In this document: piece by piece, positions 19,017 through 47,136 of the stretch | Numbering within the stretch: position 1 is the first letter of the stretch | How the letters are laid out: each line of letters starts with the position of its first letter | Source: Spirochaetia bacterium | GTDB taxonomy: Bacteria > Spirochaetota > Spirochaetia > SZUA-6 > Bin103 | Length of the DNA: 64,000 bases | Direction: 5' to 3' | Assembly: GCA_965243545.1 (NCBI GenBank) | Contig: OZ251573.1 | Coordinates: 2,246,093-2,310,092, forward strand | Position numbers and translations under genes: made by a program | The notes under the pieces: generated by a model | Told to the model about the DNA's origin: nothing | Databases searched by the model: none | The model's input: only the letters and a program-made list of their open reading frames with translations

Positions 19017-19109
19017 CGGTTGGTGAACCGGCCGGCCCGGAGGAGTAGCACCTAGACCGGGAGGGGCGCGCGCGCCCCTCCTCAACCGGCAGGAGAGGCA
19101 GCGAACGCG

Positions 19110-20048: not shown

Positions 20049-20059
20049 GGTCCGGTTCC

Positions 20060-20956: not shown

Positions 20957-20969
20957 CCGGAGGTCGGGG

Positions 20970-29335: not shown

Positions 29336-30894
29336 AGCGGCGCATGAACGGCGGCCAGGCGCTGGTCCGATCACTCGCCGCGCAGGGGGTGGCGGTCACC
29401 TTTGGCGTGCCGGGCGCGGGCCAGTACGAGGCGGTCGACGCCTTCTTCGACACCGGCGGCATCCGCTACGTCTCCTGCCGCAACGAGCAACCGACCACGC
29501 ACATGGCCGACGGCTACGCGCGCGCCGTCAACCGGCCCGCCGCCGCGCTGGTGGTGCCGGGCGCGGGCCTGTTCAACGCCTCCGGGGGCGTGTCGACCGC
29601 GCTCCGCTCCTCCTCCCCCATCATCGTGATCAGCGGCGCGCCCGAGGACCGGATCAAGGGCGCGGCCGGCGGCCACTGGCTTGCGCCGGTCACCAAGTGG
29701 GCCGCGCGCGCGTCCACTCCCGGCGAGGTGGCGGCCAAAGTGCCGGAGGCGGTGCGCGCGGCGTGCTCCGGCCGCCCGCGGCCGGTCTACCTGGAGGTGC
29801 CGGCCACGGTGCTGGCGCAGGAGGAAGATGTGGAGATCGCCCCGGCGGTCACGATCGAGCCGCCAGCCGGCGACCCGGCCGCCCTGGAGCGCGCCGCCGC
29901 CCTGCTGTCCGGTGCCGAGCGCCCGTTGATCCTGGCCGGAACCGGCGTCCACCGCTCCGGCGCCGCGGCGGCGCTTGCCAAGCTGGCCGAGCTGCTGCCG
30001 GCGGCGGTGGTGACGACGACCGCCGGCAAAGGCGCCATCTCCGACCGCAGCCCGTTGGCGCTGGGGCAGGCGCTGGCCGCCTACGCGCCGCTGGTGGAGT
30101 TCGCGCAGTCGCGCGACGTGGTGCTCGCCGTCGGCGCCCAGGCCGGGCCGGCGGCACTGCCGGGCGTCGATCCGTCGCGCGTGATCCGCATCGACGTGGA
30201 CCCCGGCGCGCTGGCCGGCGATCAGGCGGTCGCCATCGAAGCGGACGCCCGCCGCGCTCTGGAGACGCTGGCCGAGCTGGTGCGTCCCGGGCGGGCCGAG
30301 GACCCGGCTGCGGCCATCGCGGCGCTCAACGCCGTCCGCTACGGAGACACCGAGCAGCTGCAGCCGCAGCGCTCCTACGTCGAGGCGTTGCGCGCGGCTA
30401 TCCCGGATGACGGCGTGCACTCCTACGGCATGAACCAGATGGGCTACTACAGCCGCAACTATTACCGGGTGTACGCGCCCGATACGTATTTCGATCCGCG
30501 CGGCAACCTGGGCGCCGCGCTGCCGATCGCCATCGGCGCCAAGGTCGCCCGCCCGGACACGCCGGTGGTCGCCTGCTGCGGCGACGGCGGCGTCATGTAC
30601 CACGTCCAGGAGCTGGCTACCGCGGTGCTGCACGGCATCGCCGTGACCGTGGTGGTCTTCAACGACGACGCGTACGGCAACGTCAAGCGCTCGCAGCAGG
30701 AGGACTTCGGCGGCCGGCTGGTCGGCGTCGACCTGCGCAACCCGGACTTCGTCCGGTTGAGCGAATCGTTCGGCGTGCGCGGGGCGCGGGCGCGCGACGC
30801 GGCGGCGCTCCGCCGGGAACTGGAGCGCGCGTTCGCGGGCAGCGAGCCGGTGCTGATAGAGGTCCCGGTCGGTCAGATGGAGCGGGTCTATTGA
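29332..30894 (+). CDS. thiamine pyrophosphate-dependent enzyme (acetolactate synthase-like)
   Basis: The start ATG 29332 (MKRRMNGGQALV) forms an ATGA overlap with the PhyH stop; the track ORF 28645.. is over-extended. TPP motif CCGDGGVMYHVQELATAV...VVVFNDDAYGN. Confidence 0.8.
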   Translation: MKRRMNGGQALVRSLAAQGVAVTFGVPGAGQYEAVDAFFDTGGIRYVSCRNEQPTTHMADGYARAVNRPAAALVVPGAGLFNASGGVSTALRSSSPIIVISGAPEDRIKGAAGGHWLAPVTKWAARASTPGEVAAKVPEAVRAACSGRPRPVYLEVPATVLAQEEDVEIAPAVTIEPPAGDPAALERAAALLSGAERPLILAGTGVHRSGAAAALAKLAELLPAAVVTTTAGKGAISDRSPLALGQALAAYAPLVEFAQSRDVVLAVGAQAGPAALPGVDPSRVIRIDVDPGALAGDQAVAIEADARRALETLAELVRPGRAEDPAAAIAALNAVRYGDTEQLQPQRSYVEALRAAIPDDGVHSYGMNQMGYYSRNYYRVYAPDTYFDPRGNLGAALPIAIGAKVARPDTPVVACCGDGGVMYHVQELATAVLHGIAVTVVVFNDDAYGNVKRSQQEDFGGRLVGVDLRNPDFVRLSESFGVRGARARDAAALRRELERAFAGSEPVLIEVPVGQMERVY

Positions 30895-32036
30895 ACCGCC
30901 CGGCCACCTACGCGGACCTGGGCGTGCGGCCGTTCATCAACTGCCGCGGCACCGGCACGGCCAGCGGCGGAAGCCTGATGCCGGAGCCGGTATTGGAGGC
31001 GATGCGGCAGGCGGCCGGCAGCTTCGTGGCGCTGGAGACGCTGCAGGAGCGGGTCGGCGAGCGGCTGGCGCGCCGCATCGGCGTGGAGGCGGCGTTGGTC
31101 ACCTGCGGCGCGGCCAGCGGCGTGCAGCAGGCGGCGGCCGCCTGCCTGACCGGCGCGGACGCAGAGCGGGTGCAGCGGCTGCCGTTCACCACCGGGTGGC
31201 GCAACCGGTTCGTGATCCCGCAGGTCGACGCGCACGACTACCTGTTTCAGGTGATCGCCGCGGTCGGCGGCGTGCTGGTCAAGGTCGGCGGCAGGGAGTC
31301 GTGCCCCACCGCCGCGATCGAGGCGGCCCTCGACGACGACACGGCGGCGGTCGTGCATTACCTGGGAAAACAGACGCTGGCGCAGCTCGCCGAGGTGGTG
31401 GCGGTCGCCGCACCGCGCGGCATCCCGGTCATCGTCGACGCGGCGGCGCAGCTGCCGCCCCGCTCCAACCTCACCGAACCGGCGCGCCTGGGCGCGGGTC
31501 TGGTGGTGTTTTCCGGCGGCAAAGGCTTGCGCGGGCCGCAGTCGAGCGGCTTGGTGGTCGGCAAGGAGGAGCTGATCCGCGCCGCGCGCATGAACGGATC
31601 GCCGGCCAGCTCGGTCGGCCGCGGCATGAAGGTCGGCAAGGAGGAGCTGATGGGCCTGCTGGCCGCGGTGGAGCTGTTCCTGGAAGGGAGCGATGAGGAG
31701 GACTACCGCCGCTGGCGCGCCGACTCGGAGCTGATCGCGGACGCGCTGGCCGGCGTTGATGGCGTGAACGCTACGGTCGACGACGGCGACGAGCTCTTCT
31801 TCCCCGGCGGCGTGCCGCGCGTCCGCATCGAGCTCGCCGGCGCCCGCACGGCCGATGCCTGCGCCGCCCCGCTCCGCGACGGCGACCCCAGCATCAACAT
31901 GGGAACCTGGGAGCGCGGCATGTTCGTCGACCCCATGACCCTGCAACCCGGCGAAGCCCCCCAGGTCGCCCGCCGCCTCCGAGAGGTGCTGACGGTGATG
32001 TATACTGCCCTGCCTAAAGGACCATCCGATGGCTGA
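30891..32036 (+). CDS. SelA-like / DgaE-like PLP-dependent enzyme
   Basis: VVFSGGKGLRGPQSSGLVVGKEELI resembles the FSGDKLLGGPQ PLP-lysine region of the SelA family. Confidence 0.5.
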   Translation: MNRPATYADLGVRPFINCRGTGTASGGSLMPEPVLEAMRQAAGSFVALETLQERVGERLARRIGVEAALVTCGAASGVQQAAAACLTGADAERVQRLPFTTGWRNRFVIPQVDAHDYLFQVIAAVGGVLVKVGGRESCPTAAIEAALDDDTAAVVHYLGKQTLAQLAEVVAVAAPRGIPVIVDAAAQLPPRSNLTEPARLGAGLVVFSGGKGLRGPQSSGLVVGKEELIRAARMNGSPASSVGRGMKVGKEELMGLLAAVELFLEGSDEEDYRRWRADSELIADALAGVDGVNATVDDGDELFFPGGVPRVRIELAGARTADACAAPLRDGDPSINMGTWERGMFVDPMTLQPGEAPQVARRLREVLTVMYTALPKGPSDG

Positions 32037-35000
32037 CACCGAAAACTCCCACCAGCTGCGCAACGGCCTCCCCCATTGCATCTCCCGCGATCAACAGGGC
32101 TTCGACCGCCTGAAACGCATACTCGGGCTCAGTCGCGACACATGCAGAAATCTCCTGGACATCGCCCGAAAAAACGTAACATCTTTTCCCAAGGCAAAGT
32201 TGAGTCGCCGCTTGAGCGCCAGTGAACGCGATCGGCTATTACTGCTTGAGCTCTACCAAGACAAGACTCGCCGATATAAATACTGGGCACACATCTTCTC
32301 TCTGTTTGAGTCGGGCAAAGACAAGGAGATTGCCCGGAAGCCTCCCTCGCTCGAGCATCGTCTCCTCACCCACCATCTCAACGACTTCTCTACTGAGAAA
32401 CGCGACTCATTGCAAAGTCTCGATGTTTTTTCTTGCTGGCCCGACCTTGCGCAGCATCTGACCGACACCGTTCCCTGGGCCGACTTCTCCGCACATGCAT
32501 GGGCCGCCACTCTAAAACGTTTGTCGGTTGATACCTGGGACGCTCTTGATCCCGACCAACGCGCCGAAGTTTCGATGACCGTCTTTTCCATCGCGACCAT
32601 CGTCGATGACGACCGCATACTGCGTTCCGCCATCAGCGCCATACCCGACCTCGCGGCCGAATACGACGACATACTACAAACACCGCCGGTTTCCGACGAC
32701 GTTACCGAAACCGGTGCGGCACCGGAAGACGATTCGGAAATCGCAAATATTGTAGAGATAGAAGAGGAAATCGAGAATAACGAAAGCAACGAACACGACG
32801 TCCTCGATAGGTGGACCGCCCTCTGCGAGTCGCTGGGATCGTTAGCCAACGACGCCAAGGGTCCACCCCTCATCGTCGACACCTTGCCCCAAATACGCGC
32901 CGTCGTCGATGAGTTGTCAAAGATCGCCCAACACGCCAAAGAACGGACCGCAGCCGCTGCTTTCGACCACCTGATTTCCCAAGTGCATGCCTATCTTGAC
33001 GATTCTTCTCCGCAAGGTTTTTCCTGGATCGGGAACACCCAGCGCACGAACCTGAACGCCGCATGGGAAGCCGAACGGCCATCGCTATCCATGAAGCAAA
33101 TTGGTGAAGAATTTATCCGACTGGAAGAAAGTGTTCCGACCGCTCTCAAGCACATCGACGACGTGACGGCCAACCTATCGACTGCCCAAGCGAAGCTCGA
33201 CGCCTTCCCAACCGCACCCCCTGACTTCGCATCCTACGAACATTGGGCAAGCTCCAGTGTCACATTGAGCGAGGCCGTTACCGGGTTGCGGACTGACCTA
33301 TATCGGGCGTTCCTTGATCTGCTTTCTCAGCTGTCACCTTTCGGTAGACCGTTCTCCCCGAATGCTCCTCAACACTCGCCTCCCGACCACGACACCCCAT
33401 CGTCGCCACCGGCCTCCGCACCAGAAGGCGATCAGCCGTCGACCACCACCGAGTCAGCCCCCAGCGAACCCCACGAGCACGACCTTGACCCCCCAGACGC
33501 CGGGTCCGACGAAAAGCCCGAACCGACCGCCATTCCCGCCCCTAATGAGTCTTCCTCCCAATTGGCTGCGAATGAAGTACGCCCGGTTGAATCTACTGAA
33601 GCACCACTGACCCGTCGCGCCGCTGATACCGACCCAGCGGCAACGAAACACCCGCAATCCGATGACACCGACGGCGTCGCCGCTACACCCACTAGGCGAC
33701 CCACACCAGCGCCAGACGCTGAGAAGCCGCCCATAGAGTCTGGGTCTCCCCCCGAAGCACCGCCAGCCCGCCTGATTGCAGACGCGCTAAGCGAATCTCC
33801 CCCTCGGCTTGCTTACGCCGCCCAGGTCAGCGCTCTGAGTGAGCGCCTTGCTTTTTCGACGGATGCTCCTTTAGCCGTTCTCCTCAAAGCCGCCGCGCTT
33901 GCTGACTATCTCACTTCGCCGGATGGTACAATAGCGTACGCTCTGAGTGGCCTCCTTGAAGGTTTTTCGTTGTCCGATTCCGTCGAAGATAAGGACGACT
34001 TGGTTCGTGACCAGTACAATATGCTTGCGCTCGCCGCGGCTTTACGGCCGACGTTGCTTTTGCCAGGGCCCGCTGCACTGAGTATCCTTTCATCGCTTTC
34101 CCCTAGCGAGCGATTGCAGGCGGTGTTTCGGTTTGCTAACGCCGTCGTAACGAGCCGTGCTGAGCTGCCGGGAGTTCGCGTCGACTCCACTATGTTGAGG
34201 GCAGCCCGTTCCGATGCTGCCTGGCGACAGGAACGCGATGGCCTTCGCGACGAACTTGCCGACTGGCGTCAGCGTGCGTCGAGGATGACCTTGATATATG
34301 CGCCCGCGACTGCGGTGTGGAAGCAGTGGCTTAGCTCGGAGGGAATCATCGGAAGATTAGTCGCATCAATCGCCTCGAATACTGAGGACGACGTATCCAT
34401 CAAGGAATCACTTAGCGAATTACATACCCAAAGAGACTTCAATAAGCATGTCAAGGTAACCGACCGTAATCTCATTGGTCGTCAACGGGGCCCGGACATC
34501 GAAGCTCGCGCACTAAAACAACTCTACGAACACGCGCAGATTGCCGTAGACCTTGGTCGCCGGCACCTGAGTCTCCGCGCATCACAGCCAGCGAACCGAG
34601 CCCCCGAGACCATCGTCGCGCTCACGAGACTTCTAGATCGGGTCCAGCGGCTCGGTTCACTCGCCGCCGACGAGCTCCATACAATCTCCAATAACAGAGG
34701 GCCGACGCTTTTGGTCGCCGCCGCGAGCACCGCCGCATATGCAATTGATCGATTTCGTACCTTCCTACAGGCAGCGTCCGACCAAGAGCCTGATCCACAA
34801 GACATTCTCGCATCGGCGCTGTTCCCCTATCCAACGATCCCGATCGGCGCGGACGGCCTATCTGCCTGTGATGACCAGAGTGCGCTCGACACGTTAATTA
34901 CGTCCGAGCCGCTCGATTTGGATTTCGCAGCGATGAAGCGATTGGAGTCCGGTGATTTCCGAACTACACGGCAGATGCTCCGATGGATTGAGTCAAACGA

Positions 35001-38000
35001 TCTGGATCACTCAGACAACATTCGCCGTGTATTGACACAGGAGTTACAGCGACGCCGACGGGACTTGCGCCACGATATTGATGATACCAGAGCAAGGATC
35101 ACCACAGCGTTTTCGCGCGAACACATTCAGGACGCCCAGAGAACCACGTACGAAGCCCAGCTTGTTGAAATGGAGCGACGCGCCGAACAGCCCGAATTTC
35201 TCGACTACGAGGCTGAATACGCTGTCCTTCGTAAAATCACTCACGACATCGACACGGCGCTCGATCAGCTAAGGACGAAAGCTCATTCCCATCTTAGGCG
35301 CTCAGGAATCGAGCCGGATAGTTCGCGCTATGCTGGGATTGTAGACGCCATCAAGCGCGGCGATATCATCACTGCTAACGAGGTGATCGGACGACCGGAA
35401 GCCATCAACTTCTTGGTCGATACGGCGCCACCAAATCCATTTGTTGATTTCTATCCCTCACGATCTGAGGCTATCAGGAAGGAAATAGAAGATCGGCCGG
35501 CCCCCCAGGTGATCCGTGAGGTAACAACCTCTGACGTGTTTGGAGGCATGGAGCTCACTTCTGTGTCTCGCGAGCAACGAGAATCAGCTGGACGCATGCT
35601 GACAGCATGGTACGCGCTAAGGCGTGCTGGCCGTTTATCCGATTCAGCAAAGGGTCACATTGAGACACTACTCTCCGAGATTAGATTCGTCGTACGCCAG
35701 ATACGCCTTACGTCTCGGAGTCACCGCGATCTTGCCGAGGCGTTCGTCGAGACCGACCCGTTGGACACTAGGGAGCAGTGTCCGATTCCTGAGTTCGGCT
35801 CGTCCGTCAGCGGAAGGTACCGGATCGTATTCCTGTGGAGAAGCCCAACGGCGGAGGATATCCTTCAGCACGCAAACAGCGGGGACCGTCGGCAAGCAAC
35901 GATTGTATTGTATTTCGCCGCGCTAGACGCTTCACGTCGAGCCGTGCTTGCTCGCCTCACTCGCGAACGCTCCCGCAGCCTGCTTATAGTCGATGACGTG
36001 TTGATTCTGTACCTGTGCGGCGCTGTTGGGTCCCGAATGCCAGTTCTGTTTGGCTGTTCACTACCCTTTACCTACGTCCAGCCGTACGTCACGAGCGCCG
36101 GTCTGGTGCCTCCTGAGATGTTCTACGGCCGTGAGCGGGAAATCGAAGAAATTGCGGCTCCGAATGAGTCTTGCTTTATCTATGGAGGCAGGCAACTGGG
36201 CAAGACCGCGCTTCTCCGTCAAGTTGAAAAAAAATACCACCGACCCGCTAATGATACCTACGCGATTTGGATCGATTTGAAGCGTGATGGTGTGGGCTAT
36301 GATCGGGTCTACGAGCACGGGGTACGAGGTGTCTGGAGCACCATCTGGCGCGCGCTAAACGCCGCAATGGAAATGCCGGACGACGTTATGGACCCTAATC
36401 CTAACACACCTAACATCCGAAGGCGTATTGACGATTTCGTCAATTTTCTTGAAGGCTATTTTAGGCGAGAATCAGGACGGAGGCTCCTTCTGCTGCTAGA
36501 CGAGGCCGACAAATTTCTAGAAGTAGACGCTCGACAAGTACAGGGCCGACCAGGTACCGAGTATCGGGAGTCGGCCCAGTTGAAAGGGCTCATGGATGCC
36601 ACTGAGCGCTCGATCAAAGTTGTCTTCGCCGGCCTCCATAACGTGTTGCGGACAGCCGAGTCCTCGAATCATCCACTCGGTCACTTCGGCACACCGATCC
36701 AAATTCGTCCGCTTTGGCGCGACGCTCGTGCACTGATCCTCGAACCACTCACAGCTGCCGGTTATCGGCTCGACGAGAATCTTGTAGTCCGGGTTCTCGC
36801 CCGAACCAACTACTATCCGCACCTCATACAGCTCTACGGCTCGGACCTCGTTAAATCGATGGCTAATAGAGTAGTTGACGCACCTCCGTTTCCGATTCCG
36901 GAGTCGCTCGTTGACGACACCTATCTGAAGGATACGAATCTCCGCCAAGAGTTTCGTCAGAGGTTTCGTCTGACTTTGCAGCTCGATCCTCGCTACGAGG
37001 TGATCGCCTACACGGTGGCCTATGAATGCAATGAGCGACATTCCGCCCTTTCCGACGGGCTCGATTTCCGGCAGATAGACGAAAAGGCCCGGTCCTGTTG
37101 GCCCGAGGGCTTCGACGACTTCGAGCCGGGTACCGACCGCTTTCGGTCCCTTCTCGATGAAATGGACGGCCTTGGAGTGCTGCGTAAGGTTGACGACCAT
37201 CGATATACGTTGCGCAACCCTAACGTGTTGATGCTTATGGGTTCATCGGAAGAGATTTTGGAGACTCTTCTTAGACCTCGTAACTTGCCGCAGGAGACTG
37301 ATCCTGCTACGTTCAGGGCTCACGATCCTAGTGGCGGAGATTCTTCTCCGTCTCGTAACCCACTTACGTACCAGCAGGAGGGATCGCTTCGCGCGATGAA
37401 GAACGGTGTCTCAATAGTCTGTGGCTTACCGGCGTCCGGTTACGACGACGTTCCTCGCTTCCTAAGCCGTTCGGGATTTGTTGTTCAACTATTCGACGAG
37501 AAAGAATTTCGCGACCCGTTGGGCGTGGGATCGCTGACTCGCCGCCAGTTCGGTGATACGCTTGTGAGTCACTATGATGGACGATCCGAGGGTACGACCA
37601 TTTACGTAGTCTCCAGCGCCGTTCCGTGGGATAAGGAGTGGGTAGGTGAGTCGTTGGAACGCGTTCACAATCTCAACGTTCGGGGGCGCAGAGACAAGAA
37701 CGTCCGTGTGCTGTTTATGGCGAACGCTACGCGTCTCTTGAACCTCTACTCGGCACGCGAAGGACTCGACGATCTCAGTTTTCAGGGACGGCTTGAATGG
37801 GTTCCACTGCGTCCGTGGCGGGCGGGTTTTCTGCTACAATGGATGAACGATTTAGGTATTCCTGACGCGACCGAGAAGTGCCCGAAGATCATTCATCATA
37901 CGGGCGGATGGTGGGCGTTACTCCAGCGCTTTTACCATCTGGTGATGAAAGAGGGGGACTTCGATGTCGGGCTTGAACGTCTCGACAGCTGGTTAGTGGA

Positions 38001-38262
38001 TTCAAGTAATCGTCCGTTGATCGATGAGCAATTCGGCCTTGATTGCATTGGATCTCGGAGGGAAGTGTTACGCGATCTTACAGAATATGGTGCTGCTGAT
38101 TTCACGGAGCTCCGGACGTTCGCTGAGGACCGGGGCGTGGGAGCTGATAATCTTAGGAACATATTGAGGTGGGCCGAACTACTTCACATAGTGCGCCGAG
38201 CCGGCGCTAAATGGGAGATTGACAGTGTGGTGGGTCGGCTACTCACTGGATCTGTTCTCTGA
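32029..38262 (+). CDS. giant (2077 aa) P-loop NTPase (AAA/STAND-like) of unknown function
   Basis: A single uninterrupted ORF in an AT-richer block. Walker A is FYGREREIEEI...IYGGRQLGKTALL. Walker B is RRLLLLLDEADKFL, followed by VVFAGLHNV and a winged-helix-like GLGVLRKVDDHRYTLRNP. Also present are a long unannotated N-terminal half, a P/E/D/S-rich disordered segment, and a C-terminal ~500 aa extension. Confidence 0.6.
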   Translation: MADTENSHQLRNGLPHCISRDQQGFDRLKRILGLSRDTCRNLLDIARKNVTSFPKAKLSRRLSASERDRLLLLELYQDKTRRYKYWAHIFSLFESGKDKEIARKPPSLEHRLLTHHLNDFSTEKRDSLQSLDVFSCWPDLAQHLTDTVPWADFSAHAWAATLKRLSVDTWDALDPDQRAEVSMTVFSIATIVDDDRILRSAISAIPDLAAEYDDILQTPPVSDDVTETGAAPEDDSEIANIVEIEEEIENNESNEHDVLDRWTALCESLGSLANDAKGPPLIVDTLPQIRAVVDELSKIAQHAKERTAAAAFDHLISQVHAYLDDSSPQGFSWIGNTQRTNLNAAWEAERPSLSMKQIGEEFIRLEESVPTALKHIDDVTANLSTAQAKLDAFPTAPPDFASYEHWASSSVTLSEAVTGLRTDLYRAFLDLLSQLSPFGRPFSPNAPQHSPPDHDTPSSPPASAPEGDQPSTTTESAPSEPHEHDLDPPDAGSDEKPEPTAIPAPNESSSQLAANEVRPVESTEAPLTRRAADTDPAATKHPQSDDTDGVAATPTRRPTPAPDAEKPPIESGSPPEAPPARLIADALSESPPRLAYAAQVSALSERLAFSTDAPLAVLLKAAALADYLTSPDGTIAYALSGLLEGFSLSDSVEDKDDLVRDQYNMLALAAALRPTLLLPGPAALSILSSLSPSERLQAVFRFANAVVTSRAELPGVRVDSTMLRAARSDAAWRQERDGLRDELADWRQRASRMTLIYAPATAVWKQWLSSEGIIGRLVASIASNTEDDVSIKESLSELHTQRDFNKHVKVTDRNLIGRQRGPDIEARALKQLYEHAQIAVDLGRRHLSLRASQPANRAPETIVALTRLLDRVQRLGSLAADELHTISNNRGPTLLVAAASTAAYAIDRFRTFLQAASDQEPDPQDILASALFPYPTIPIGADGLSACDDQSALDTLITSEPLDLDFAAMKRLESGDFRTTRQMLRWIESNDLDHSDNIRRVLTQELQRRRRDLRHDIDDTRARITTAFSREHIQDAQRTTYEAQLVEMERRAEQPEFLDYEAEYAVLRKITHDIDTALDQLRTKAHSHLRRSGIEPDSSRYAGIVDAIKRGDIITANEVIGRPEAINFLVDTAPPNPFVDFYPSRSEAIRKEIEDRPAPQVIREVTTSDVFGGMELTSVSREQRESAGRMLTAWYALRRAGRLSDSAKGHIETLLSEIRFVVRQIRLTSRSHRDLAEAFVETDPLDTREQCPIPEFGSSVSGRYRIVFLWRSPTAEDILQHANSGDRRQATIVLYFAALDASRRAVLARLTRERSRSLLIVDDVLILYLCGAVGSRMPVLFGCSLPFTYVQPYVTSAGLVPPEMFYGREREIEEIAAPNESCFIYGGRQLGKTALLRQVEKKYHRPANDTYAIWIDLKRDGVGYDRVYEHGVRGVWSTIWRALNAAMEMPDDVMDPNPNTPNIRRRIDDFVNFLEGYFRRESGRRLLLLLDEADKFLEVDARQVQGRPGTEYRESAQLKGLMDATERSIKVVFAGLHNVLRTAESSNHPLGHFGTPIQIRPLWRDARALILEPLTAAGYRLDENLVVRVLARTNYYPHLIQLYGSDLVKSMANRVVDAPPFPIPESLVDDTYLKDTNLRQEFRQRFRLTLQLDPRYEVIAYTVAYECNERHSALSDGLDFRQIDEKARSCWPEGFDDFEPGTDRFRSLLDEMDGLGVLRKVDDHRYTLRNPNVLMLMGSSEEILETLLRPRNLPQETDPATFRAHDPSGGDSSPSRNPLTYQQEGSLRAMKNGVSIVCGLPASGYDDVPRFLSRSGFVVQLFDEKEFRDPLGVGSLTRRQFGDTLVSHYDGRSEGTTIYVVSSAVPWDKEWVGESLERVHNLNVRGRRDKNVRVLFMANATRLLNLYSAREGLDDLSFQGRLEWVPLRPWRAGFLLQWMNDLGIPDATEKCPKIIHHTGGWWALLQRFYHLVMKEGDFDVGLERLDSWLVDSSNRPLIDEQFGLDCIGSRREVLRDLTEYGAADFTELRTFAEDRGVGADNLRNILRWAELLHIVRRAGAKWEIDSVVGRLLTGSVL

Positions 38263-38268
38263 TCCGGC

Positions 38269-39369
38269 GTGAAAATCTGGACCTTGCCGGGTCCTGCGTC
38301 TTTTGTCGAAGGCATCGAGAATGCGATTCGGGATGGATCGAACGTCGTAATCCGGTTTCCCTGCCCAGTGCCTCCCGGGCTGGAGACAGAGTTGCGAGAG
38401 CGCTTGTATCCGGTATGTAGTGCGTGGACCTCCATCGACGCCTCAGCGGCGTCTGACCCATTGGTGTTCCTGCGCGAGCGCGTGTGTCCTGATGTCGCCA
38501 CACATAGGGTTCGGGGTATGGCGGAGTTAGCGGATACCGTTGCGTTTCAGGGGCGGCTTCTTTGGATAGAAAAGATTCGCCGGTGCAACTGGGCCCAGTG
38601 GGCTGTCGCTCTAGCGGCCTATGCCGATGCATGTCGTAGCGTGGACCTACTGAGTCGTACCCTGTTCATCGTCGTTCTGTCTGGCGCAACAGTTGAAGAA
38701 GGTGTCCCTGAAGAGGTCGCTCTCGTACGTCGGGACTTTCGCAATGTGGTAGATACGCTGGACCTATTCGTATTTGCGTTATTTCGGCTTTCGGGAAGGA
38801 TTGAGCATCTTGAACATCGCTCACTGGTGGCACACACGGTGTCGCAGGTGGCTCAGTGGGATTGTCTGCTTGCAGAACGGCTTCTGATCGAGCCGCTAGA
38901 GGCATTGAGCCCGGATTCGGCGCTTAGGGACTACGCGCGCCGCCGAGGGTGGACTCCGGCTACGTTTCGATGCTGGGAGAACGGGACAGTGGATGGTCCG
39001 GCGAATCGGCCCATCGTGCACTCTGCGCTCCTGACGGTCTCGAACGATTCGGCCTCGGTGAGTCAGAGAATATGGGCGGGTCAATCGGCGGTCCTGCTAC
39101 CGGTTGTCGAAGAACGGAGGATCGCCATTATACCTCGTTGTAGGCGCTATTTGAGACTACCTATTCGGACTCAAACAGGCGAATGTGTTTACGATCCCCG
39201 CGAGATGGAGATCGGTTCATTGGCGTGGCATCTCGACCGTACGAACGCTCCACGGGAGTTGAAGCAGCAAGCATGGTTTCTGAGTCGTATCCGTAACAAG
39301 CTAGCGCATATGGAGACCCTTCCACCCGAAGACGCTTTGAACCCTATGTTGCTACCAGAAGACGAATGA
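38269..39369 (+). CDS. hypothetical protein with C-terminal HEPN-like Rx4H motif
   Basis: GTG start 6 nt after the giant gene stop, with the same AT-richer composition. The C-terminus LKQQAWFLSRIRNKLAHMETL contains R-N-K-L-A-H, the R[NH]xxxH form of the HEPN RNase motif. There is no other recognisable motif. Confidence 0.45.
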   Translation: MKIWTLPGPASFVEGIENAIRDGSNVVIRFPCPVPPGLETELRERLYPVCSAWTSIDASAASDPLVFLRERVCPDVATHRVRGMAELADTVAFQGRLLWIEKIRRCNWAQWAVALAAYADACRSVDLLSRTLFIVVLSGATVEEGVPEEVALVRRDFRNVVDTLDLFVFALFRLSGRIEHLEHRSLVAHTVSQVAQWDCLLAERLLIEPLEALSPDSALRDYARRRGWTPATFRCWENGTVDGPANRPIVHSALLTVSNDSASVSQRIWAGQSAVLLPVVEERRIAIIPRCRRYLRLPIRTQTGECVYDPREMEIGSLAWHLDRTNAPRELKQQAWFLSRIRNKLAHMETLPPEDALNPMLLPEDE

Positions 39370-39381
39370 CCGTTCGAGGGC

Positions 39382-39455
39382 GGCGCTTCAGGATTTCGTG
39401 TGGCCGAGGTAGTCACGGGAGACGCCTGCGGGGTAGAGGTCAAGGCCGCCGAAGT
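39382..39455 (-). mobile_element. 74-bp remnant of the ISL3 element end (terminal IR plus last transposase codons)
   Basis: 39382-39455 matches 6895-6968 with a single mismatch seen by eye and encodes ...[20 protein letters not shown]. The similarity stops abruptly at 39456. Confidence 0.8.
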
Positions 39456-39885
39456 CCGGAGGTGTGGAAGTATGTGGTGTAGGGCAAGGTCGAGCGGTGC
39501 TCCGAGCATGACAGGCCCGCAGTTGCTTGTTCCGCCTTGGCGCCGCGCGGTGATTGCGCGTTTGTGCTGCTCGGAGAGACACATCACCGCGAGCTCTGCC
39601 CGACTGCTTGCCGGCGCGGCTTCGGCTGCTGCGCGGCTGCTTGGTGGCGCGGCTGCCCGGAACGCTGCGGGGGCTGGAACGGCCGTCGAGTCTGAGAAGG
39701 CCGTCGACGGGACGCGCACCGGTTGAGCGGCGCATACATACGGCGCAACCGCATCCCGACTGCGGGCGGGCACTGACCGCGCCACCAGCCGGGACGGCCC
39801 GCGGTAGACAATCCGGCCGGACGCCCGTACCATGACGCGAACGCGCTCCAAACCTGGGAGCAGATCGAAACACGGGGGGACTGTC

Positions 39886-40890
39886 ATGGCGCGGAGCGAC
39901 CTCCTCGTTTCGCTGGTGAAGGCCGGATCAAGCGGTGACGCAACGCGCGCCCGCTCCGTCACGGAAGCGATCATCGCTGAGGAACGTGCAAAACGTCACA
40001 ACGTGCTCGCTGAACGCCTGACGGAGGCGATGCGCATGAATGGCGCCGGGCCCGCGACGGCGAAATTCGCAGGGCACGGCCAGCGGCACCGGGAGTTTCT
40101 TCTTGAGTTGACCCCACGCCGTCGGATTGAGGACCTGATCCTCTCCGATCTGGCGCGGCGGGCGTGCGGCGAGTTGATCGAGGAGCAGCACCGGGCCGCG
40201 TTGCTGCGGGCGCATTCGCTTGAACCGCGGCACCGTGTCCCGCTGGTGGGACCTCCCGGCAACGGCAAGACGTCCCTGGCCGAGGCCATCGCGGAGGCGC
40301 TGGCGGTGCCGTTCTTCGTGGTGCGCTACGAAGCGATGATCGGCAGCTTCCTCGGCGAAACCGCCACCCGCCTGAAGCGAGTCTTCGACTACGCCCGAAC
40401 AACCCCGTGCGTACTGTTCTTCGACGAGTTCGACGCGGTAGGCAAGGAGCGTGGCGACGTTCACGAGACCGGCGAGATCAAACGGGTAGTTACGTCGTTG
40501 CTGATGCAGGTGGACGATCTGCCAAGCTACACCGTGGTCGTGGCGGCCACCAACCACGCCGAGCTGCTCGACCGGGCTGCGTGGCGCCGGTTCCAGGTGC
40601 GCCTTTTGCTCAACCCCCCGACGCGGCGAGATCTGACCGCCTATCTTGCGCGGTTCGCCGCCACTCTCGATGAACCGCTCGGCCGGACGCCCGACACGAT
40701 CGCCAAGACGCTTGGCGCGATCAGCTACGCGGAGGCTGAGGAGTTCTGTCGCGACGTGCGGCGCCGCAACACCCTCGCTCTAGGCGAGCAGCCGCTCGAG
40801 ACCATCGTTGCGGACCGATTGAAACTCTGGGCCGAGCGGTCGCGGGCATCCGTACGCGAGGAGAAAGCGGATGGCGGCGCAACATCGTAG
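39886..40890 (+). CDS. classic-clade AAA+ ATPase
   Basis: Walker A LVGPPGNGKTSLA. Walker B VLFFDEFDAVG. Sensor-1 VVAATNH. Arg-finger region DRAAWRRF. ATG 39886 is preceded by GGGGGGA. Confidence 0.8.
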   Translation: MARSDLLVSLVKAGSSGDATRARSVTEAIIAEERAKRHNVLAERLTEAMRMNGAGPATAKFAGHGQRHREFLLELTPRRRIEDLILSDLARRACGELIEEQHRAALLRAHSLEPRHRVPLVGPPGNGKTSLAEAIAEALAVPFFVVRYEAMIGSFLGETATRLKRVFDYARTTPCVLFFDEFDAVGKERGDVHETGEIKRVVTSLLMQVDDLPSYTVVVAATNHAELLDRAAWRRFQVRLLLNPPTRRDLTAYLARFAATLDEPLGRTPDTIAKTLGAISYAEAEEFCRDVRRRNTLALGEQPLETIVADRLKLWAERSRASVREEKADGGATS

Positions 40891-40900
40891 GAGCGCGGAG

Positions 40901-41191
40901 ATGGCGCCGCTTACCTATCTTGACACCGATGAGCAGGAGCTCATCGAGAGCATCGAGCAGGCGCCTCATCTCGGCGGGCGGCTCGATCCGGTGGAGGAAA
41001 GCAGGTTCCGGGAGCTGCTCAAGGGCGCCGCGCGCAGGAGACCCAAGGACACGGAGATCACCATGCGGATTTCTGCCGATGATCTGTTGGCCATCAAGGC
41101 GCTTGCCCGCCGGCTCGGCGTCGAGTATCAGCCGCTGATCGCGGAGGTGGTACACCAATATGCGCGGGGTCTGCTCAAGCGTTCCGGCTGA
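40901..41191 (+). CDS. CopG/BrnA-like ribbon-helix-helix antitoxin-family protein
   Basis: TEITMRISADDLLAIKALARRLGVEYQPLIAEVVHQYARGLL matches the K..i.iRl...dl..lK..A...G.pYQ.Li pattern. It is a paralogue of 43603..43911. Start chosen at ATG 40901. Confidence 0.55.
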   Translation: MAPLTYLDTDEQELIESIEQAPHLGGRLDPVEESRFRELLKGAARRRPKDTEITMRISADDLLAIKALARRLGVEYQPLIAEVVHQYARGLLKRSG

Positions 41192-41209
41192 CTGCGCGTC
41201 CCGCGTAGC

Positions 41210-42097
41210 TCAGCCTACCGGGAGCGTGCGTCCGGTATGGGCGCGGCCGATACGTGCGGTCTGTTCGCGGCCGCCGGAGATGATGCGCGCGCCCCGGTCG
41301 ATCTGCGCCGCCACCGTGTCGGGCGTCGCCCCGTCCAGGAAGGTCACGCCGTTGGCGGCGCAGGCGGCGCGCACCCGCTCGTTGGCCGCCACGACGCGCG
41401 GATCATGCCGGTCCGGGAGGCGGGTTACGCCGTAGGACACGTGCAGGTCGCCGGGGCCGCATTCGGCAAAGCCGATGCCGGGCACCGCCAGCATCTGTTC
41501 GATGTGCGCCACCCCGCGCACCGACTCCACCTTGATGCCGAGCAGCAGCTCGCCGTCCGGGTTGAGCGGCCAGGGGTCGCACGCGGCGATGTACTCGGAG
41601 ATGTCCAGACCCCAGATAGCGGCAGCCGACGGCTCGGAACCGACGCCGCGCGTGCCGCGTTCCAGTCCCCGGTCGACGCCGATCATGTTGCACGGGTACC
41701 GGCACGACTCGACGAACGCCCGCACGGCGTCCGGGGTCTCGGCTTGGCACAGCAGCACGCCGTGCGCCCCACGCCCCAGAATCTGGCGAAACTGCCAAGC
41801 GTTGTAGCGGACGATAGCTTCGCTCGCGCCTTCCACGGGCGCTTCGACGATCACGGCCGGCGTGCGGTGGCCGCCGTGGGTGGGACCGCCCGCGACCAAG
41901 CCCTCCAGATAGCGGTCCAGCCCGGCCATGTCGAAGGCGCCATGCTCCATGCCGACGTTGACATAGTCGGCCCAGGTGTAGGCGTCCCGCACTCCCTGTT
42001 CGCGGGTCAGGACGGCGCCGGTATGGCCGCCGGCGTAATAGACCGGCTGGCCGGCCGCCAGCAACTCGATCGCGCGGTTGACCCTCCTGGCTCCCAT
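41210..42097 (-). CDS. HpcH/HpaI-family aldolase-like protein
   Basis: The length and overall pattern (VNVGMEHGAFD, LLGIKVESVRGV, FAECGPGDL) resemble class II pyruvate aldolases of the HpcH family. Confidence 0.55.
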   Translation of the reverse strand: MGARRVNRAIELLAAGQPVYYAGGHTGAVLTREQGVRDAYTWADYVNVGMEHGAFDMAGLDRYLEGLVAGGPTHGGHRTPAVIVEAPVEGASEAIVRYNAWQFRQILGRGAHGVLLCQAETPDAVRAFVESCRYPCNMIGVDRGLERGTRGVGSEPSAAAIWGLDISEYIAACDPWPLNPDGELLLGIKVESVRGVAHIEQMLAVPGIGFAECGPGDLHVSYGVTRLPDRHDPRVVAANERVRAACAANGVTFLDGATPDTVAAQIDRGARIISGGREQTARIGRAHTGRTLPVG

Positions 42098-42135
42098 TCG
42101 TGCTCTCCTCGCGTCGCACCGGGCGTTGGCGCGGC

Positions 42136-42408
42136 TCAGGCCGACTCCGTCGTGTCCATTCGCTTGGTGAGATTGGCGAGATGATCCCGGCGCTTGCGCG
42201 CCAGAATGACCGCGCGGGCTACGTCGAACTCCGGACCGAGTTCGTCATAGGCAGCCCGGTATTCCGGATCGATGCTCCACTTCTCGTGAAGACTTTCTAC
42301 GCTGCTTCCGCCTTCTCGCTTGCCGTGTGGAGTCAAGTCCGTTTCCAATGTCCGGCCCGCACGCATCATAGCACCCCTTGTTGCGACCAGGCAACCCGTC
42401 CCTGCCAC
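42136..42408 (-). pseudogene. 3'-truncated XRE/HigA-like HTH antitoxin remnant
   Basis: EKWSIDPEYRAAYDELGPEFDVARAVILARKRRDHLANLTKRMDTTESA* follows the common W..DPE...Y..L.PEF......I.ARK..GLTQ.ELA.RMGT.QSA pattern but stops before the recognition-helix end. There is no partner toxin. Confidence 0.35.
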
Positions 42409-43918: not shown

Positions 43919-46900
43919 ATGCCACCAGAGACAAAGCGCCGCGAGCTCGATAAATCCGTGGGCTCGATGACGTATCCGGCGGTGCGGAAGAACATTCCGC
44001 CGGCGGGGCTGGCGGCGCAGGGGGAGGTGCGCGAGAAGAGGGCGGGCGGTATGAGTACAATCCGCATCTGCCGCCGGCTTTGCGGTCGGCGCCGGACGCG
44101 GCGGCGGCGGACCGGCTGCCGGCGTTGCTGGAGACCGCCCGGCACCGGGCGCTCACGGAGGATGAAGCCGCGGCGCTGGCGGAGGCGTTGCGGCGGCATG
44201 AGCCGTGGCTGGAGTGGACGGGCAAGCGCGAGCGGCCGTGGTTCGAGGTCGATCCGGTGGCGCTGCACATGCACGAGCGGGTCTCCACGCAGGCGATCCT
44301 GCGGGTGCTCGCGCGCGGCGACGTGCAGCGCGATCTGTTCGCCGATCCGCAGCTCGATTACGCGCGGGCGGTGCAGTTCTACCGCCACGACATCGACTGG
44401 ACCAACCGCATGATCCTGGGCGACTCGCTGCAGGTGATGGCCAGCCTGGCCCACCGCGAGGACCTTGCCGGCAAGGTGCAGATGATCTACGTGGACCCGC
44501 CCTACGGGATCAAGTTCGCCTCCAACTTTCAGCCGCAGCTCGGCCAGCGCGACGTCAAGGACCGGCAGCAGGACCTGACCCGCGAGCCGGAGATGGTCAA
44601 GGCGTACCGCGACACCTGGACGCTCGGGGTCCACTCCTACCTCGCCTATCTGCGCGACCGACTGACGATGGCGCGCGAGCTGCTCAGCGACACCGGCAGC
44701 ATCTTTGTGCAGATCAGCGACGAGAATCTGCACCGCGTCCGTTTGCTCATGGACGAGGTGTTCGGCGTCAGCAAATTCGTGGTGACCATCAAGTTCTCCA
44801 AGAACGTCGGGGCTGGGCGGCCGGTTTCTGGACGAGACGTTCGATCATCTCATCTGGTTCGCCAGGGACATCGAACGGATCAGGTTTCGCCGGCCGTTTA
44901 TGGAGCGCGTCAGCGGTGAATCGGGGGCGACGCAGTACCGTTATTCGATGCGGCCCGACGGCTGGTTCAGCGAGTCCGACGACGAATCGGAAGGAAGGCG
45001 GTTTGCGCATGACAACCTTACGTCGCAGACGGGTAACGAGTCGACCGTGTTTCCGTTCGAGATCGACGGCTGGCCGATTTCCGCGCCGCGCAAGGGCGGC
45101 TGGAAATCCAACGCCGAAGGCATCCAGCGGCTGAAGCAGGCGCACCGCATCATTCGGGTCGGCAACACGCCGCGCTACGTACGGTACTTCGACGACGCGC
45201 CGAGCTTCCCGGTCGGATCTGGCTGGACGGACACCGGTATCAGCGGCTTCGGCGCGGAGAAAGAGTACGTCGTCCAAACCCATCCGCTGGTCGTGCAGCG
45301 CTGCATGTTGATGACGACCGATCCGGGCGACCTGGTGCTTGATCCGACCTGCGGGAGCGGCACCACGGCGTTCGTGGCCGAGCAGTGGGGGCGGCGGTGG
45401 ATCACGATCGACACCAGCCGGGTGGCGCTGACGCTGGCCAAGCATAGGCTGTTGACCGCCCGCTTCGACTACTACCGGCTGCGCGCACTGAGCGCCGAGG
45501 ACGTGGCGCGCAACCCGAACGGAACGTGGATCGAAGGAGCGGACGGCAACGGCGGGCCGAACGGCGAGCGGCTCACCCTCGACTGCCGCACCGTCCCGCA
45601 TATCACGCTCAAGAGCATCGCCCGCAACACCGCGCTCGATCCGATCTTCGCCCGCCACGAACCGATACTGGCCACGGCGCTCGCGGCGCTGAACCGGCAA
45701 CTCGTCACCATCACCCCGGAACAGAAACAAAAACTCGTTGAAAAGCTGATCGCCAAGCACCGCCGCGACGGCTCCAACGCCGTCACCAACGCGGACGTGC
45801 GGCGCTGGCTGCTGCCGGACACCTCGCCTGATCTGATCGTTCCGGTCGGCGCGCGCCGGCCGCTCAAGGCGGTCACCGCCCGGCAGGCCGCCAAGTACCG
45901 CGACCAGATTCCCGCCGGCGAATGGCGCGAGTGGGAGGCGCCGTTCGACGCCGACCCGGATTGGCCGCAGCCGCTGCAGGAAGCGCTGGCCGCCTACCGC
46001 GCCGCGTGGCGGGCGAAGATGGATGAGGTCAACGCCTGCATCGCCGCCAACGCCGAGACCGAGGAGCTGGTCGACAAGCCGGCCATCGTCAAGAACACCG
46101 TCCGCGTCGCCGGGCCGTTCACGATGGAAGGGGTGATCGCGCTCGAAGAAGGGCCGGGCACGCCGATCGGCGGCGCGCCGGAGGAGTTGGATAACTTCGG
46201 CGCCGAAGACGGGGCCGCCGCGGTCGCCAACGCCGAGGCGCACCTCGACAAGATGATCCGCCTGCTCAAGGCCAGCGGCGTGCAGTTTCCCGCCAACAAG
46301 AAGCAGCGCTTCGAGCGGCTCGACCCGGTCACCGGCGCCGCCCTGATCCACGCCGAAGGCGAGTGGCGCAACGGCGCCGGGGACGCGCGCCGGGTGGCCG
46401 TCAGCATCGGCCCGGAGGCCGGCAACGTGACGGCGTGGCAGGTCGAGGAGGTGGTGCGCGACGCCAACCGCGCCGGCTACGACGACGTGGTGTTCGCCGG
46501 CTTCGGCTTCGACGCCGCGGCGCAGGCCGCCATCGAACACTCCGCGCACCGCAACCTGCGCCTGCACATGGCGTTGATCAGCCCGGACGCGGCCCTCGAC
46601 GACCTGCTCAAGACGCAGCCCGGCAGCCAGATATTCACCGTATTCTCGGCCCCGCGCGTGGCCGGCCCCACCCGCCGGGAGGACGGCGACTACGTGGTCG
46701 AGGTGGAGGGGATGGACGTGTACGATCCGGTATCCAACACGCTCGCGCCCACCGACGCGGCGGGCATCGCCGCCTGGTTCCTGGACACCGACTACGACGG
46801 GCGCACCTTCTGCATCTGCCAGGCGTTCTTCCCCGACAAGAGCAAGTGGAGCCGGCTGGCGCGGGCGCTCGGCCGCACCGGGTTGGTGGAGGAGGCGGCG

Positions 46901-47047
46901 TTCGACGACCTGAGCGGCCTGCGCAGCCTGCCGTTCGCGCCACCGCCGGACCGCCGCCTGGGCGAGCCGTGGCGCATCGCCGTCAAGGTGATCGACCCAC
47001 GCGGCAACGAGGGCCTGCGCGTCCTCACCGTGGAGGAGCCGGCATGA
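43919..47047 (+). pseudogene. mod: Type III-like N6-adenine DNA methyltransferase (Mod), tandem copy 1, two frameshifts
   Basis: The reading frame is split over track ORFs 43919.., 44080..44919 and 44900..47047. Motifs are IYVDPPYGIKF (DPPY) and LDPTCGSGTTAFVA (AdoMet). Relative to copy 2 there is a 1-nt deletion near 44046 (GGGCGG-GCGG) and a 1-nt insertion near 44805 (AAGAACG vs AAGACG). Confidence 0.8.
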
Positions 47048-47074
47048 TCGACCGCATCGTCATCAAGAACTTCA
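43943..47074 (+). repeat. tandem ~3.1-kb repeat unit, copy 1 (mod plus first 31 nt of the ATPase gene)
   Basis: Collinear with 48874-51955 (offset 4930-4932). Its last kb is also collinear with copy 3. Antisense track ORFs 45175..45441 and 50105..50371 translate identically. Confidence 0.9.
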
Positions 47075-47136
47075 CGATACCGCGGGGTGCATCGACAACT
47101 TGCAGCCGAAGTGATACATTGCGCCAGGAGGACGAC

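Follow-up and report, generated by a model that had tools for sequence, protein, structure and literature searches.

The A-B Locus and Its Base Composition

The window analysed here, that is, the whole stretch of 64,000 nucleotides (nt) of a genome labelled "Spirochaetia bacterium" (assembly GCA_965243545.1, contig OZ251573.1, positions 2,246,093 to 2,310,092 of the forward strand), carries a block of two co-directional genes, here called A and B, which we examined as a candidate defence system. The two genes are separated by a spacer of only 6 nt:

32029..38262, + strand, gene A, 2077 amino acids (aa), ATG start, intact open reading frame (ORF)
38269..39369, + strand, gene B, 366 aa, GTG start, intact ORF

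Upstream of A there are genes for a short-chain dehydrogenase and a thiamine pyrophosphate enzyme, followed by a SelA-like gene for a pyridoxal phosphate enzyme (30891..32036; Pfam SelA, E 7e-7), the stop of which is overlapped by 8 nt by the ATG of A. An earlier reading of this locus, made from the letters alone and called here the sequence-only reading, had given both the 6-nt spacing and the 8-nt overlap, and the coordinates came out exactly as claimed. It had also quoted a series of motifs, every one of which was found in the translations, namely FYGREREIEEI, GGRQLGKTALL, LLLLLDEADKFL, VVFAGLHNV, and VLRKVDDHRYTLRNP in A, and RNKLAH in B (residues 342-347, nt 39292-39309).

The guanine-plus-cytosine (GC) content is 0.72-0.75 upstream and 0.53-0.61 inside 32000-39500 in the composition scan of the window, with 0.56 for the A-B block as such vs. 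0.73 for the host, and at third codon positions it falls from 0.92 (SelA-like gene) to 0.59 (A) and 0.58 (B). The abrupt drop near 31990 and the recovery after 39381 that the sequence-only reading described were confirmed by the best composition change points, 32001 and 39428 (400-nt windows), and, for the left edge, also by the synteny with sibling genomes, which ends at 31993. The A-B pair is foreign, horizontally acquired DNA.

Pairing, Spread, and Mobility of the A-B Family

The partnership between the two proteins recurs well outside this genome. In a set of 56 loci found through the B profile alone, about 50 carry, in the same orientation, a homologue of A whose end lies no more than ~20 nt before B, and an all-against-all clustering of the ORFs of these 56 loci returned only A (50 loci) and B (47 loci) as recurring families, with no third conserved gene beside them. 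The motifs on which the sequence-only reading relied are also conserved, given that the Walker A and B residues of A and the arginine and histidine of the B motif are invariant or nearly so.

The hosts include Acidobacteriota, Binatia, Gammaproteobacteria, Terriglobia, Latescibacterota, Spirochaetia-labelled metagenome-assembled genomes (MAGs), and Chloroflexota, besides Bradyrhizobium, Gemmataceae, Micromonospora/Dactylosporangium, and Xanthomonas. An exhaustive search with the B hidden Markov model gave 2519 cluster representatives (50% identity) at E<=1e-3, none of which bears a name, and 715 at E<=1e-30, nearly all of the latter being 355-395 aa long and aligned over their full length. The word-indexed B homologues number 86, and identity among homologues is 52-95% for B vs. 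29-52% for A, counting full-length A homologues.

The A-B module is horizontally mobile, as follows from three observations: its GC content lies 5-16 points under that of the flanks in most loci, a copy with 86% nucleotide identity over 5.6 kb (L001) sits between unrelated flanks, and the presence or absence of the module varies at one single site among sibling genomes, as described below.

An Integration Hotspot at the 3' End of the SelA-like Gene

The segment 25090-31993 of the window matches two sibling MAGs (L062 and L068) at 88-89% identity by blastn, and homology resumes at 42141. In these two and in two further siblings (L065 and L094), synteny with the window stops at 31993, some 2-3 codons short of where the SelA-like gene natively ends, and on the right-hand side it restarts at 42141, within an XRE/HTH-like gene on the opposite strand. 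Since sibling synteny breaks and restarts at these two points, the window carries 10.1 kb that are missing from the empty site; and since this insert runs to 42140, the AT-rich A-B block is only one cargo unit within it:

31994..42140, no strand, insert relative to the empty site (blastn synteny), missing at the same site in sibling 'Spirochaetia' MAGs
39381-42140, second cargo unit, GC content ~0.67, small ORFs, also missing from the empty site
39832-40890, gene for a CDC48/FtsH-type AAA ATPase (Pfam AAA, E 6e-29), in the second cargo unit
41210-42097, - strand, HpcH/HpaI-aldolase-like ORF, in the second cargo unit

The statement of the sequence-only reading that the island holds only two genes therefore did not survive, because the insert extends to 42140 with the CDC48-like ATPase gene and more. 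Next to its intact counterpart in L062 (10230-10405), the XRE/HTH-type gene seems to have been cut short by the insertion, with its 3' part at 42141-42313 (- strand).

The SelA-like gene has 85-91% identity to its counterparts in several MAGs that bear the label "Spirochaetia bacterium", which makes the host a high-GC member of this group, and within the group the 3' end of the gene is a hotspot of integration. The site is empty in L062 and L068, and it holds divergent A-B alleles (2035 + 368/365 aa) in L063 and L064, whose DNA identity is 82% in the initial ~600 nt of A and just ~64-66% further on. In L094, the same site is occupied by a ubiquitin-like defence system, Bil (vs. PDB 8tyz, E 2.5e-103 for BilD and 6.8e-49 for BilB), and in L065 by a cargo of 3.7 kb. 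L066 and L067 carry there a 2056-aa ORF with a GC content of 0.56 (L066:10429-16599; L067:10396-17201, frameshifted), and which may be another uncharacterised defence gene; the L066 protein has neither similarity to A nor a P-loop motif, and it matched no PDB sequence. A 333-aa methyltransferase-like ORF follows it in L067. In L064, L065, L066, and L094, the cargo is flanked by a repeated portion of the SelA-like 3' region, 155 nt to 1.8 kb long; in the window, unlike these, no second copy of the SelA-like 3' end was found. Direct or inverted repeats, att sites, and target-site duplications were sought at the island ends and none was convincing, and the window contains no tRNA gene and no tRNA integration site.

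The sequence-only reading had also placed the terminal inverted repeat of an ISL3 remnant 12 nt from the right edge of the block, and this part had to be abandoned as unsupported. No inverted-repeat partner of the putative terminal repeat was found, the region has no similarity to any PLSDB plasmid, and no Pfam transposase match was obtained from the one long minus-strand ORF scanned (39388-39870, without any Pfam match), the plus strand and the other minus-strand ORFs there being left unscanned, so that transposase homology at this place was only partly tested. The 20-mer of the putative repeat has one other occurrence in 596 Gb of genomes, as a 26-nt match at chance level in an unrelated intergenic region. 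A string of 26-27 nt (GGCGGC..CTTCAGGATTTCGTGTGGCC) lies at 39381-39410, just past the B stop, and the only near-identical copy in the genome collection is found between genes of a Dehalococcoidia MAG (L146, ~995-1025), which may be due to chance.

Gene A Is a Fusion of an X Protein with an ORC/Cdc6-Type ATPase

As judged from homology, gene A is a fusion of two proteins, an N-terminal protein that we call X and an AAA+ ATPase of the origin recognition complex (ORC)/Cdc6 type, which other lineages encode in separate genes. A profile built on A residues 1160-1960 collected 498 proteins, mostly of 800-1400 aa and at best annotated as "AAA family ATPase". One of them, the 1137-aa protein P0190 of Xanthomonas campestris, aligns end to end with residues 920-2077 of A and is followed by a 362-aa homologue of B with 30% identity that keeps RNKLAH. 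In four loci (L058 of Caldilinea, L061, L142, and L145), a gene of 653-696 aa overlaps or abuts a downstream ATPase gene of 1250-1386 aa, and in L144 the split is 1224 + 840 aa; in every split case, the lengths of X and ATPase sum to 1909-2064 aa. The N-terminal part of A has homologues in the upstream 653-659-aa proteins of L058 and L061 (E 1e-16 and 2e-10). Because the split genes are homologous to parts of A, the system exists either as X + ATPase + B or as (X::ATPase) + B. The predicted layout of A is the following:

32029..34788, + strand, aa 1-920, X-like N-terminal region, homologous to the separate proteins of L058/L061
33349-33798, + strand, aa 441-590, Pro/Ser/Glu-rich low-complexity linker, the least conserved stretch of A
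34789..35691, + strand, aa 921-1221, helical coiled-coil-like connector, corresponding to the start of the stand-alone ATPases, weak coiled-coil-type Pfam matches
35692..36018, + strand, aa 1222-1330, small conserved alpha/beta domain (AlphaFold2 secondary structure, invariant columns)
36118..36888, + strand, aa 1364-1620, predicted active AAA+ domain (Foldseek, Pfam below cut-off, invariant Walker residues)
36889..37278, + strand, aa 1621-1750, lid and winged helix, containing VLRKVDDHRYTLRNP (AlphaFold2 helix then beta-hairpin, model residues 544-578)
37315..37818, + strand, aa 1763-1930, second alpha/beta domain, AAA/Rossmann-like, without Walker A (AlphaFold2 model)
37819..38259, + strand, aa 1931-2077, C-terminal helical region with a terminal winged-helix-like hairpin (AlphaFold2 model)

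Residues 1-920 contain no recognisable domain and gave no Pfam or PDB sequence match, and the N-terminal and linker parts are the least conserved of the protein. The sequence-only reading, which saw a long N-terminal region without any motif it could name, was correct on this point, but A is a two-protein fusion and not a single sensor protein.

The structure of residues 1160-2077 was modelled with AlphaFold2 from 72 homologues, with a predicted local distance difference test score (pLDDT) of 89.4; this model covers residues 1160-1219 of the connector, the helices of which are seen at its C-terminal end. The small alpha/beta domain has four invariant residues (G1257, S1258, G1262, and D1322), and its strand/helix order in the model may recall, in our reading, a restriction-endonuclease-like topology, while a conserved catalytic D...(D/E)xK was not found in it. 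In the AAA+ domain, Walker A (GGRQLGKT, nt 36184-36207) and Walker B (LLLLDE, nt 36487-36504) are kept in all 72 ATPase-core sequences, with G1386, G1387, G1391, K1392, D1491, and E1492 invariant. The Pfam matches of this core stay below cut-off (AAA_16 with 25.3 vs. 32.6 bits, ATPase_2 with 22.9 vs. 33.2, and AAA_22 with 17.3 vs. 27), AAA_22 being the most frequent sub-threshold match (15/17 full-length A homologues). The lid and winged-helix segment is 62% identical among close homologues.

The top Foldseek matches of the A core are the Orc1/Cdc6 structures 2qby_A (E 1.7e-6), 1w5t, 1fnn, and 2v1u, together with the archaeal proteins PAB2304 (2qen) and SSO1545 (2fna), with target-normalised TM-scores of 0.60 and 0.58, respectively. 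Foldseek also aligned 650-700 columns to tandem-AAA+ proteins such as Drg1, ClpC, NSF, and p97, which agrees with the second alpha/beta domain being AAA-like. The A core is, according to the model, a Walker-intact AAA+ of the ORC/Cdc6/ATPase_2 type that is joined to a winged helix and to another AAA-like domain, the latter degenerate. The sequence-only reading had called it an AAA/STAND-type NTPase, of which the Walker-intact NTPase and the winged helix were upheld, with ORC/Cdc6 and ATPase_2 closer than a STAND clade: no STAND structure was among the matches listed for the A core, no repeat sensor was found, and STAND proteins appeared as Roq1 and Avs3 among the weaker fold matches of B and as a weak nSTAND1 match in a relative, P0217.

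Gene B Combines a Predicted Pseudo-AAA+ Fold with a HEPN-like C-Terminus

The AlphaFold2 model of B (pLDDT 93.4) divides the protein into two parts:

38269..39003, + strand, aa 1-245, clamp-loader/ORC-like AAA+ fold (Foldseek vs. PDB and BFVD)
39004..39366, + strand, aa 246-366, C-terminal helical domain, carrying R342-N343-x-L345-x-H347

The fold matches of B in PDB and BFVD are the clamp-loader subunits of T4 and E. coli, RFC, ORC, RuvB, and MuB, with a probability of 0.99-1.00 for clamp loader, RFC, and ORC. The P-loop is lost (FPCPVPPGLE, of which only P35 and G37 are conserved), and a Walker A of the form GxxxxGK[ST] was found in 1 out of 200 B relatives. Judging by the model, the N-terminal part of B is a clamp-loader-like pseudo-ATPase.

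The C-terminal domain carries R342, N343, L345, and H347, which are invariant in 24 sequences. Of 200 B relatives, 192 (96%) carry an Rx4H motif within their final quarter, in 168 of them (84% of the 200) with the RNxxxH form, and it is present as well in the distant partners from Xanthomonas, Micromonospora, and Bradyrhizobium. This motif sits at ~80% of the ~120-aa helical domain, the same position that it has in HEPN_Swt1 and DUF4145, and in the 24 B members the sub-threshold Pfam matches over residues ~333-357 are to HEPN_Swt1 (16/24) and DUF4145 (2/24). Given that these matches are short and below threshold, and that no HEPN family model matched B at its curated threshold at the domain level, the case for a HEPN character comes from the motif, the place where it lies, and its helical surroundings, and not from the domain level. 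We thus describe the C-terminal domain as HEPN-like at the level of the motif only. The sequence-only reading of B as a HEPN partner holds for the RNKLAH motif, which is near-invariant, but B is mainly a predicted clamp-loader-like pseudo-ATPase without a domain-level HEPN match.

A Sister Clade with a pPIWI-RE Module

Relatives of the A core were also found in a sister clade of giant proteins of 3035-3231 aa, four from Bradyrhizobium and one from Gemmataceae (L041-L045), besides the metagenomic protein P0013. These giants begin with a complete pPIWI-RE module, made of pPIWI_RE_X, MID, and RNaseH/PIWI (Pfam E 1e-25 to 1.6e-29), and end with the ATPase core of the A family, the N-terminus of A being replaced by this Argonaute-like module; in the Bradyrhizobium giant, AAA_22 even rises above cut-off (31.5 vs. 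27 bits). The stretch that links the PIWI module to the core, ~1200 residues long, has no similarity to the X region of the window, and neither pPIWI_RE_X, MID, nor RNaseH(PIWI) was found in the A protein of the window. The B-like partner of the giants has an extra AAA_33 P-loop domain and keeps Rx4H as RDYLAH or RNQVAH. A 275-aa ORF before the Bradyrhizobium giant gene (L041:52-876) gave no PDB sequence match.

Searches of Databases and Literature

Neither protein could be named by comparison with known systems in PADLOC, NCBIfam, Pfam, or PDB sequences, as the sequence-only reading had anticipated for the pair. A, B, and eight short-form ATPases had no significant match at the curated cut-offs of Pfam, in PADLOC v2.0, or in NCBIfam (2026). 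The best PADLOC match of A was PDC-S01 (E 0.02, over 36 residues), and its best NCBIfam anti-phage matches were DS41_1 (E 0.07) and DS8 (E 0.13), limited to the P-loop, with none for B in either library; PDB profile searches with the A and B alignments gave nothing beyond designed helical bundles and ferritin, all at E>0.005 and taken as noise. The literature on HEPN with Cdc6, AAA+, or clamp loaders and on pPIWI-RE, in a search that was not exhaustive, left the pair undescribed, and it is not described in the excerpts consulted of PMC3702460, PMC3710099, PMC12839542, PMC10853773, and 10.64898/2026.01.04.697583.

Interpretation

We favour, as the probable explanation, that A-B (three genes in other lineages) is an undescribed abortive-infection system, directed against phages or mobile elements, in which an NTPase controls an RNase. 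The gene pairing, its mobility, its place in the hotspot, the folds, and the conservation of the motifs are observed, and beyond them we infer a physical A-B complex, an RNase activity, a trigger, and a phenotype that could be connected as follows. A and B would assemble through AAA+-to-AAA+ contacts, in the way that active and inactive subunits come together in clamp loaders and in ORC; the fast-evolving N-terminal/X part of A would detect some cue of the invader, a role for which the sister clade would substitute its guide-binding pPIWI-RE module; an ATP-dependent rearrangement or oligomerisation would then join the HEPN domains of B into an active RNase; and cleavage of RNA would finally arrest the infected cell, that is, abortive infection.

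The genomic setting points to defence. The Xanthomonas pair adjoins Bub-like E1/E2/JAB genes, BrxR, and an integrase; L142 adjoins an integrase and HicB; and L144 adjoins transposases and an NB-ARC protein. Downstream in the window itself lie the following genes:

44900-47047, 49137-51983, and 52731-55892, three N6_N4 DNA methylases
55208-57085, AAA_21/AAA_15 ABC-type ATPase
57057-60392, ResIII helicase

Sensor swapping and effector addition round a constant NTPase are typical of biological-conflict systems, and the modularity of A-B is of this kind, with X and ATPase fused or split at different points and a pPIWI-RE module fused to the same core.

Several observations weigh against this explanation. 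In a survey of the nearest two ORFs per side, made in the subset of loci with both module ends placeable (131 neighbour ORFs in total), the neighbours were mostly housekeeping, such as hydrolases, solute-binding proteins, and TPR proteins, and the PADLOC matches listed amounted to about eight systems, each through one or two ORFs, so that enrichment in defence islands, as judged from these raw counts, appears modest. The HEPN_Swt1 matches of B reach 12-19 bits vs. a cut-off of 27.5 over ~25 residues (profile positions 69-103 of 115), DUF4145 reaches 16.5 bits vs. 23.1, and with the whole protein as the Foldseek query B aligns in its entirety to clamp-loader subunits, the C-terminal collar of which is likewise helical; residues 246-366 are helical in the model, and clamp-loader alignments dominate the search. 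The null results in the libraries fit novelty but give no positive support. Finally, two homologues of the ATPase core, L060 (Microcoleus) and L143, have no adjacent B gene and may represent decayed or alternative configurations. In L060, the ATPase gene comes after a PLD-SNF2 helicase gene and a 1.8-kb stretch without a called gene. The proposal of a candidate defence system is partly supported, through the pairing, the foreign DNA, and a hotspot shared with Bil, and only modestly through the neighbourhood.

The similarity to clamp loaders also suggests a DNA-directed machine of the ORC/clamp-loader kind, serving for example to exclude or restrict foreign replicons, in which A would bind DNA through its winged helices and B would be a structural pseudo-ATPase whose R, N, and H residues serve assembly or nucleic-acid binding instead of RNA cleavage. 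The top folds of A are indeed those of DNA-binding Orc1/Cdc6 initiators, two winged-helix elements are predicted in it, B resembles clamp loaders, ORC, RuvB, and MuB, and the HEPN support stays at the motif level. We nevertheless regard this as unlikely, because the motif is retained as RNxxxH in 84% and as Rx4H in 96% of relatives, the most distant branches included, and lies at the position in the ~120-aa helical domain where HEPN_Swt1 and DUF4145 carry it, and no DNase domain was found in A or B by Pfam and PDB sequence searches.

The mobility of the module brings in another alternative, namely, a selfish cassette for addiction or competition, or for the maintenance of a mobile element, acting in the manner of a toxin-antitoxin pair or with an AAA+ regulator of the TnsC/MuB/IstB type. 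The AAA_22 family includes TniB/TnsC-like proteins, and it is this family that gives the most frequent sub-threshold match of A (15/17); MuB is among the fold matches of B; and the module moves between genomes, occupies an integration hotspot, and lies in some loci near integrases or transposases. Against this, A and B alone recur, without any conserved gene for a transposase, an integrase, or replication beside them, most loci have housekeeping neighbours without a mobile-element backbone, and both the pPIWI-RE fusion and the presence of Bil as the alternative occupant of the same site point to a defence cargo, all of which makes a selfish cassette quite improbable in our opinion. We give very little credit to a host housekeeping or stress-response complex for RNA processing: HEPN domains occur also in housekeeping RNA-processing proteins, according to the excerpts of PMC3710099 used here, and many loci are found among metabolic genes, but the distribution is patchy, with presence and absence among siblings at a single site, the composition is foreign, and A diverges rapidly.

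Within the abortive-infection explanation, a more general and tentative possibility, which we consider less likely than not, is that the ATPase core plus B constitutes a previously unrecognised immune "output chassis" with interchangeable sensors. An active AAA+ would then load or license a pseudo-AAA+ subunit bearing a HEPN RNase, in a hetero-oligomer similar to clamp loaders or ORC, and the sensor would be the X protein in the window and a guide-dependent pPIWI-RE module in Bradyrhizobium and Gemmataceae. If this were true, it would amount to an Argonaute-linked abortive-infection system of a class of its own, with a novel means of switching on a HEPN nuclease; and if the system protects against phages, the pPIWI-RE-fused variant would give an effector pathway to a poorly understood branch of the Argonautes. 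Protection against phages would likewise add a widespread family to the known defences, with at least 2500 B clusters (50% identity) in soil, marine, and plant-associated phyla, and the models suggest an undescribed architecture, in which an ORC/Cdc6-type ATPase would control an effector RNase carried by an inactive subunit of clamp-loader-like type. The site where the SelA-like gene ends is, besides, a clean example of a chromosomal defence hotspot that can be mined for further systems.

Other Observations in the Window

Seven tandem copies of the 21-nt unit GCCGACCTACAGCGCCAAACT were found at 47239-47432, and given that they lie inside the ORF 46363-47964, they encode a peptide repeat of the heptad type; this ORF has a weak coiled-coil-type Pfam match. 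A lower GC content (0.56-0.64 vs. ~0.72) was also found at 1-5000, 8001-9000, and 19001-21000, and the region may contain further acquired segments besides the A-B block.

Comparison with Known Systems

Among the closest described systems are the BREX proteins BrxC/PglY and the DUF499 proteins of BREX-related (Hma/'BR') systems, which, in the excerpts consulted of PMC3710099 and PMC12839542, are AAA+ proteins of the ORC/Cdc6-STAND type with downstream winged helices that work as the organising NTPase; the same excerpts describe Type-1 BR systems in which a HEPN domain of the Swt1/Abi2 clade is joined to the DUF499 ATPase (Ava_2192 type), and other Orc/Cdc6-based conflict systems appear in the part of PMC10853773 consulted. 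A-B shares with BrxC/DUF499 the ORC/Cdc6-type AAA+ with winged helices and, at the level of the motif, the association with HEPN. In contrast, the NCBIfam BrxC model reaches only E 0.4, in a coiled-coil stretch of A, there is no Pfam DUF499 or BrxC match, and no methyltransferase, helicase, or PglZ is conserved with A-B; moreover, the HEPN-like domain of A-B is C-terminal on a separate predicted pseudo-AAA+, whereas in the HEPN-DUF499 proteins it is N-terminal on the ATPase itself.

The Avs and NLR-like STAND systems resemble the proposed A-B system in having a large NTPase, a variable sensor region, a nuclease effector, and horizontal acquisition, with Avs3 among the weak fold matches of B and the weak nSTAND1 match of P0217 in addition. 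The NTPase of A is, however, nearest to ORC/Cdc6 and ATPase_2 and matches no PADLOC model of Avs or NLR, the variable region of A-B is N-terminal and can be a separate protein, and its putative effector is provided in trans on a pseudo-ATPase. PrrC and RloC combine an N-terminal NTPase-fold domain with a HEPN-type RNase that stays silent until infection, and they are single proteins with active ABC-type ATPase domains, guarded by a restriction-modification system. B also has its NTPase-fold domain N-terminal to the HEPN-type domain, but its fold is an inactive AAA+, it is paired with a giant AAA+, and there is no PADLOC sequence match to PrrC or RloC, both of which are covered by the HEPN family classification in PMC3710099, as excerpted here. 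The gene content of A-B recurs in none of these systems, the other Orc/Cdc6-based conflict systems included, and none was matched at the sequence level in Pfam, PADLOC, or NCBIfam.

Clamp loaders (the gamma complex, RFC, and T4 gp44/62) and ORC are hetero-oligomers in which ATP-binding AAA+ subunits occur together with degenerate ones and a helical domain lies at the C-terminus, and they provide the best fold matches of B and some of those of A. The likeness is one of fold only, at 9-14% sequence identity, without a clamp or replication context, and B has Rx4H at the collar position. The archaeal ATPase_2 proteins (PAB2304 and SSO1545; PF01637) have the top target-normalised TM-scores for the ATPase plus winged helix (0.58-0.60) and Pfam E-values of 1e-4 to 1e-5, but A stays at 22.9 vs. 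the 33.2-bit cut-off, and they are stand-alone proteins of ~350 aa, whereas the ATPase here is embedded in the 2077 aa of A. As for the pPIWI-RE systems, whose full module opens the L041-L045 and P0013 giants, the PADLOC PprDinG model was matched by two of the surveyed neighbour ORFs. The published contexts are a stand-alone gene or a triad of restriction endonuclease, DinG, and pPIWI-RE (Burroughs et al. 2013, PMC3702460, in the excerpts consulted), where a fusion to an A-type ATPase core with a B-like partner goes unmentioned. In summary, A-B follows the familiar logic of an NTPase with a HEPN effector, in an undescribed and widespread family in which this putative effector is, unusually, borne by a pseudo-ATPase.

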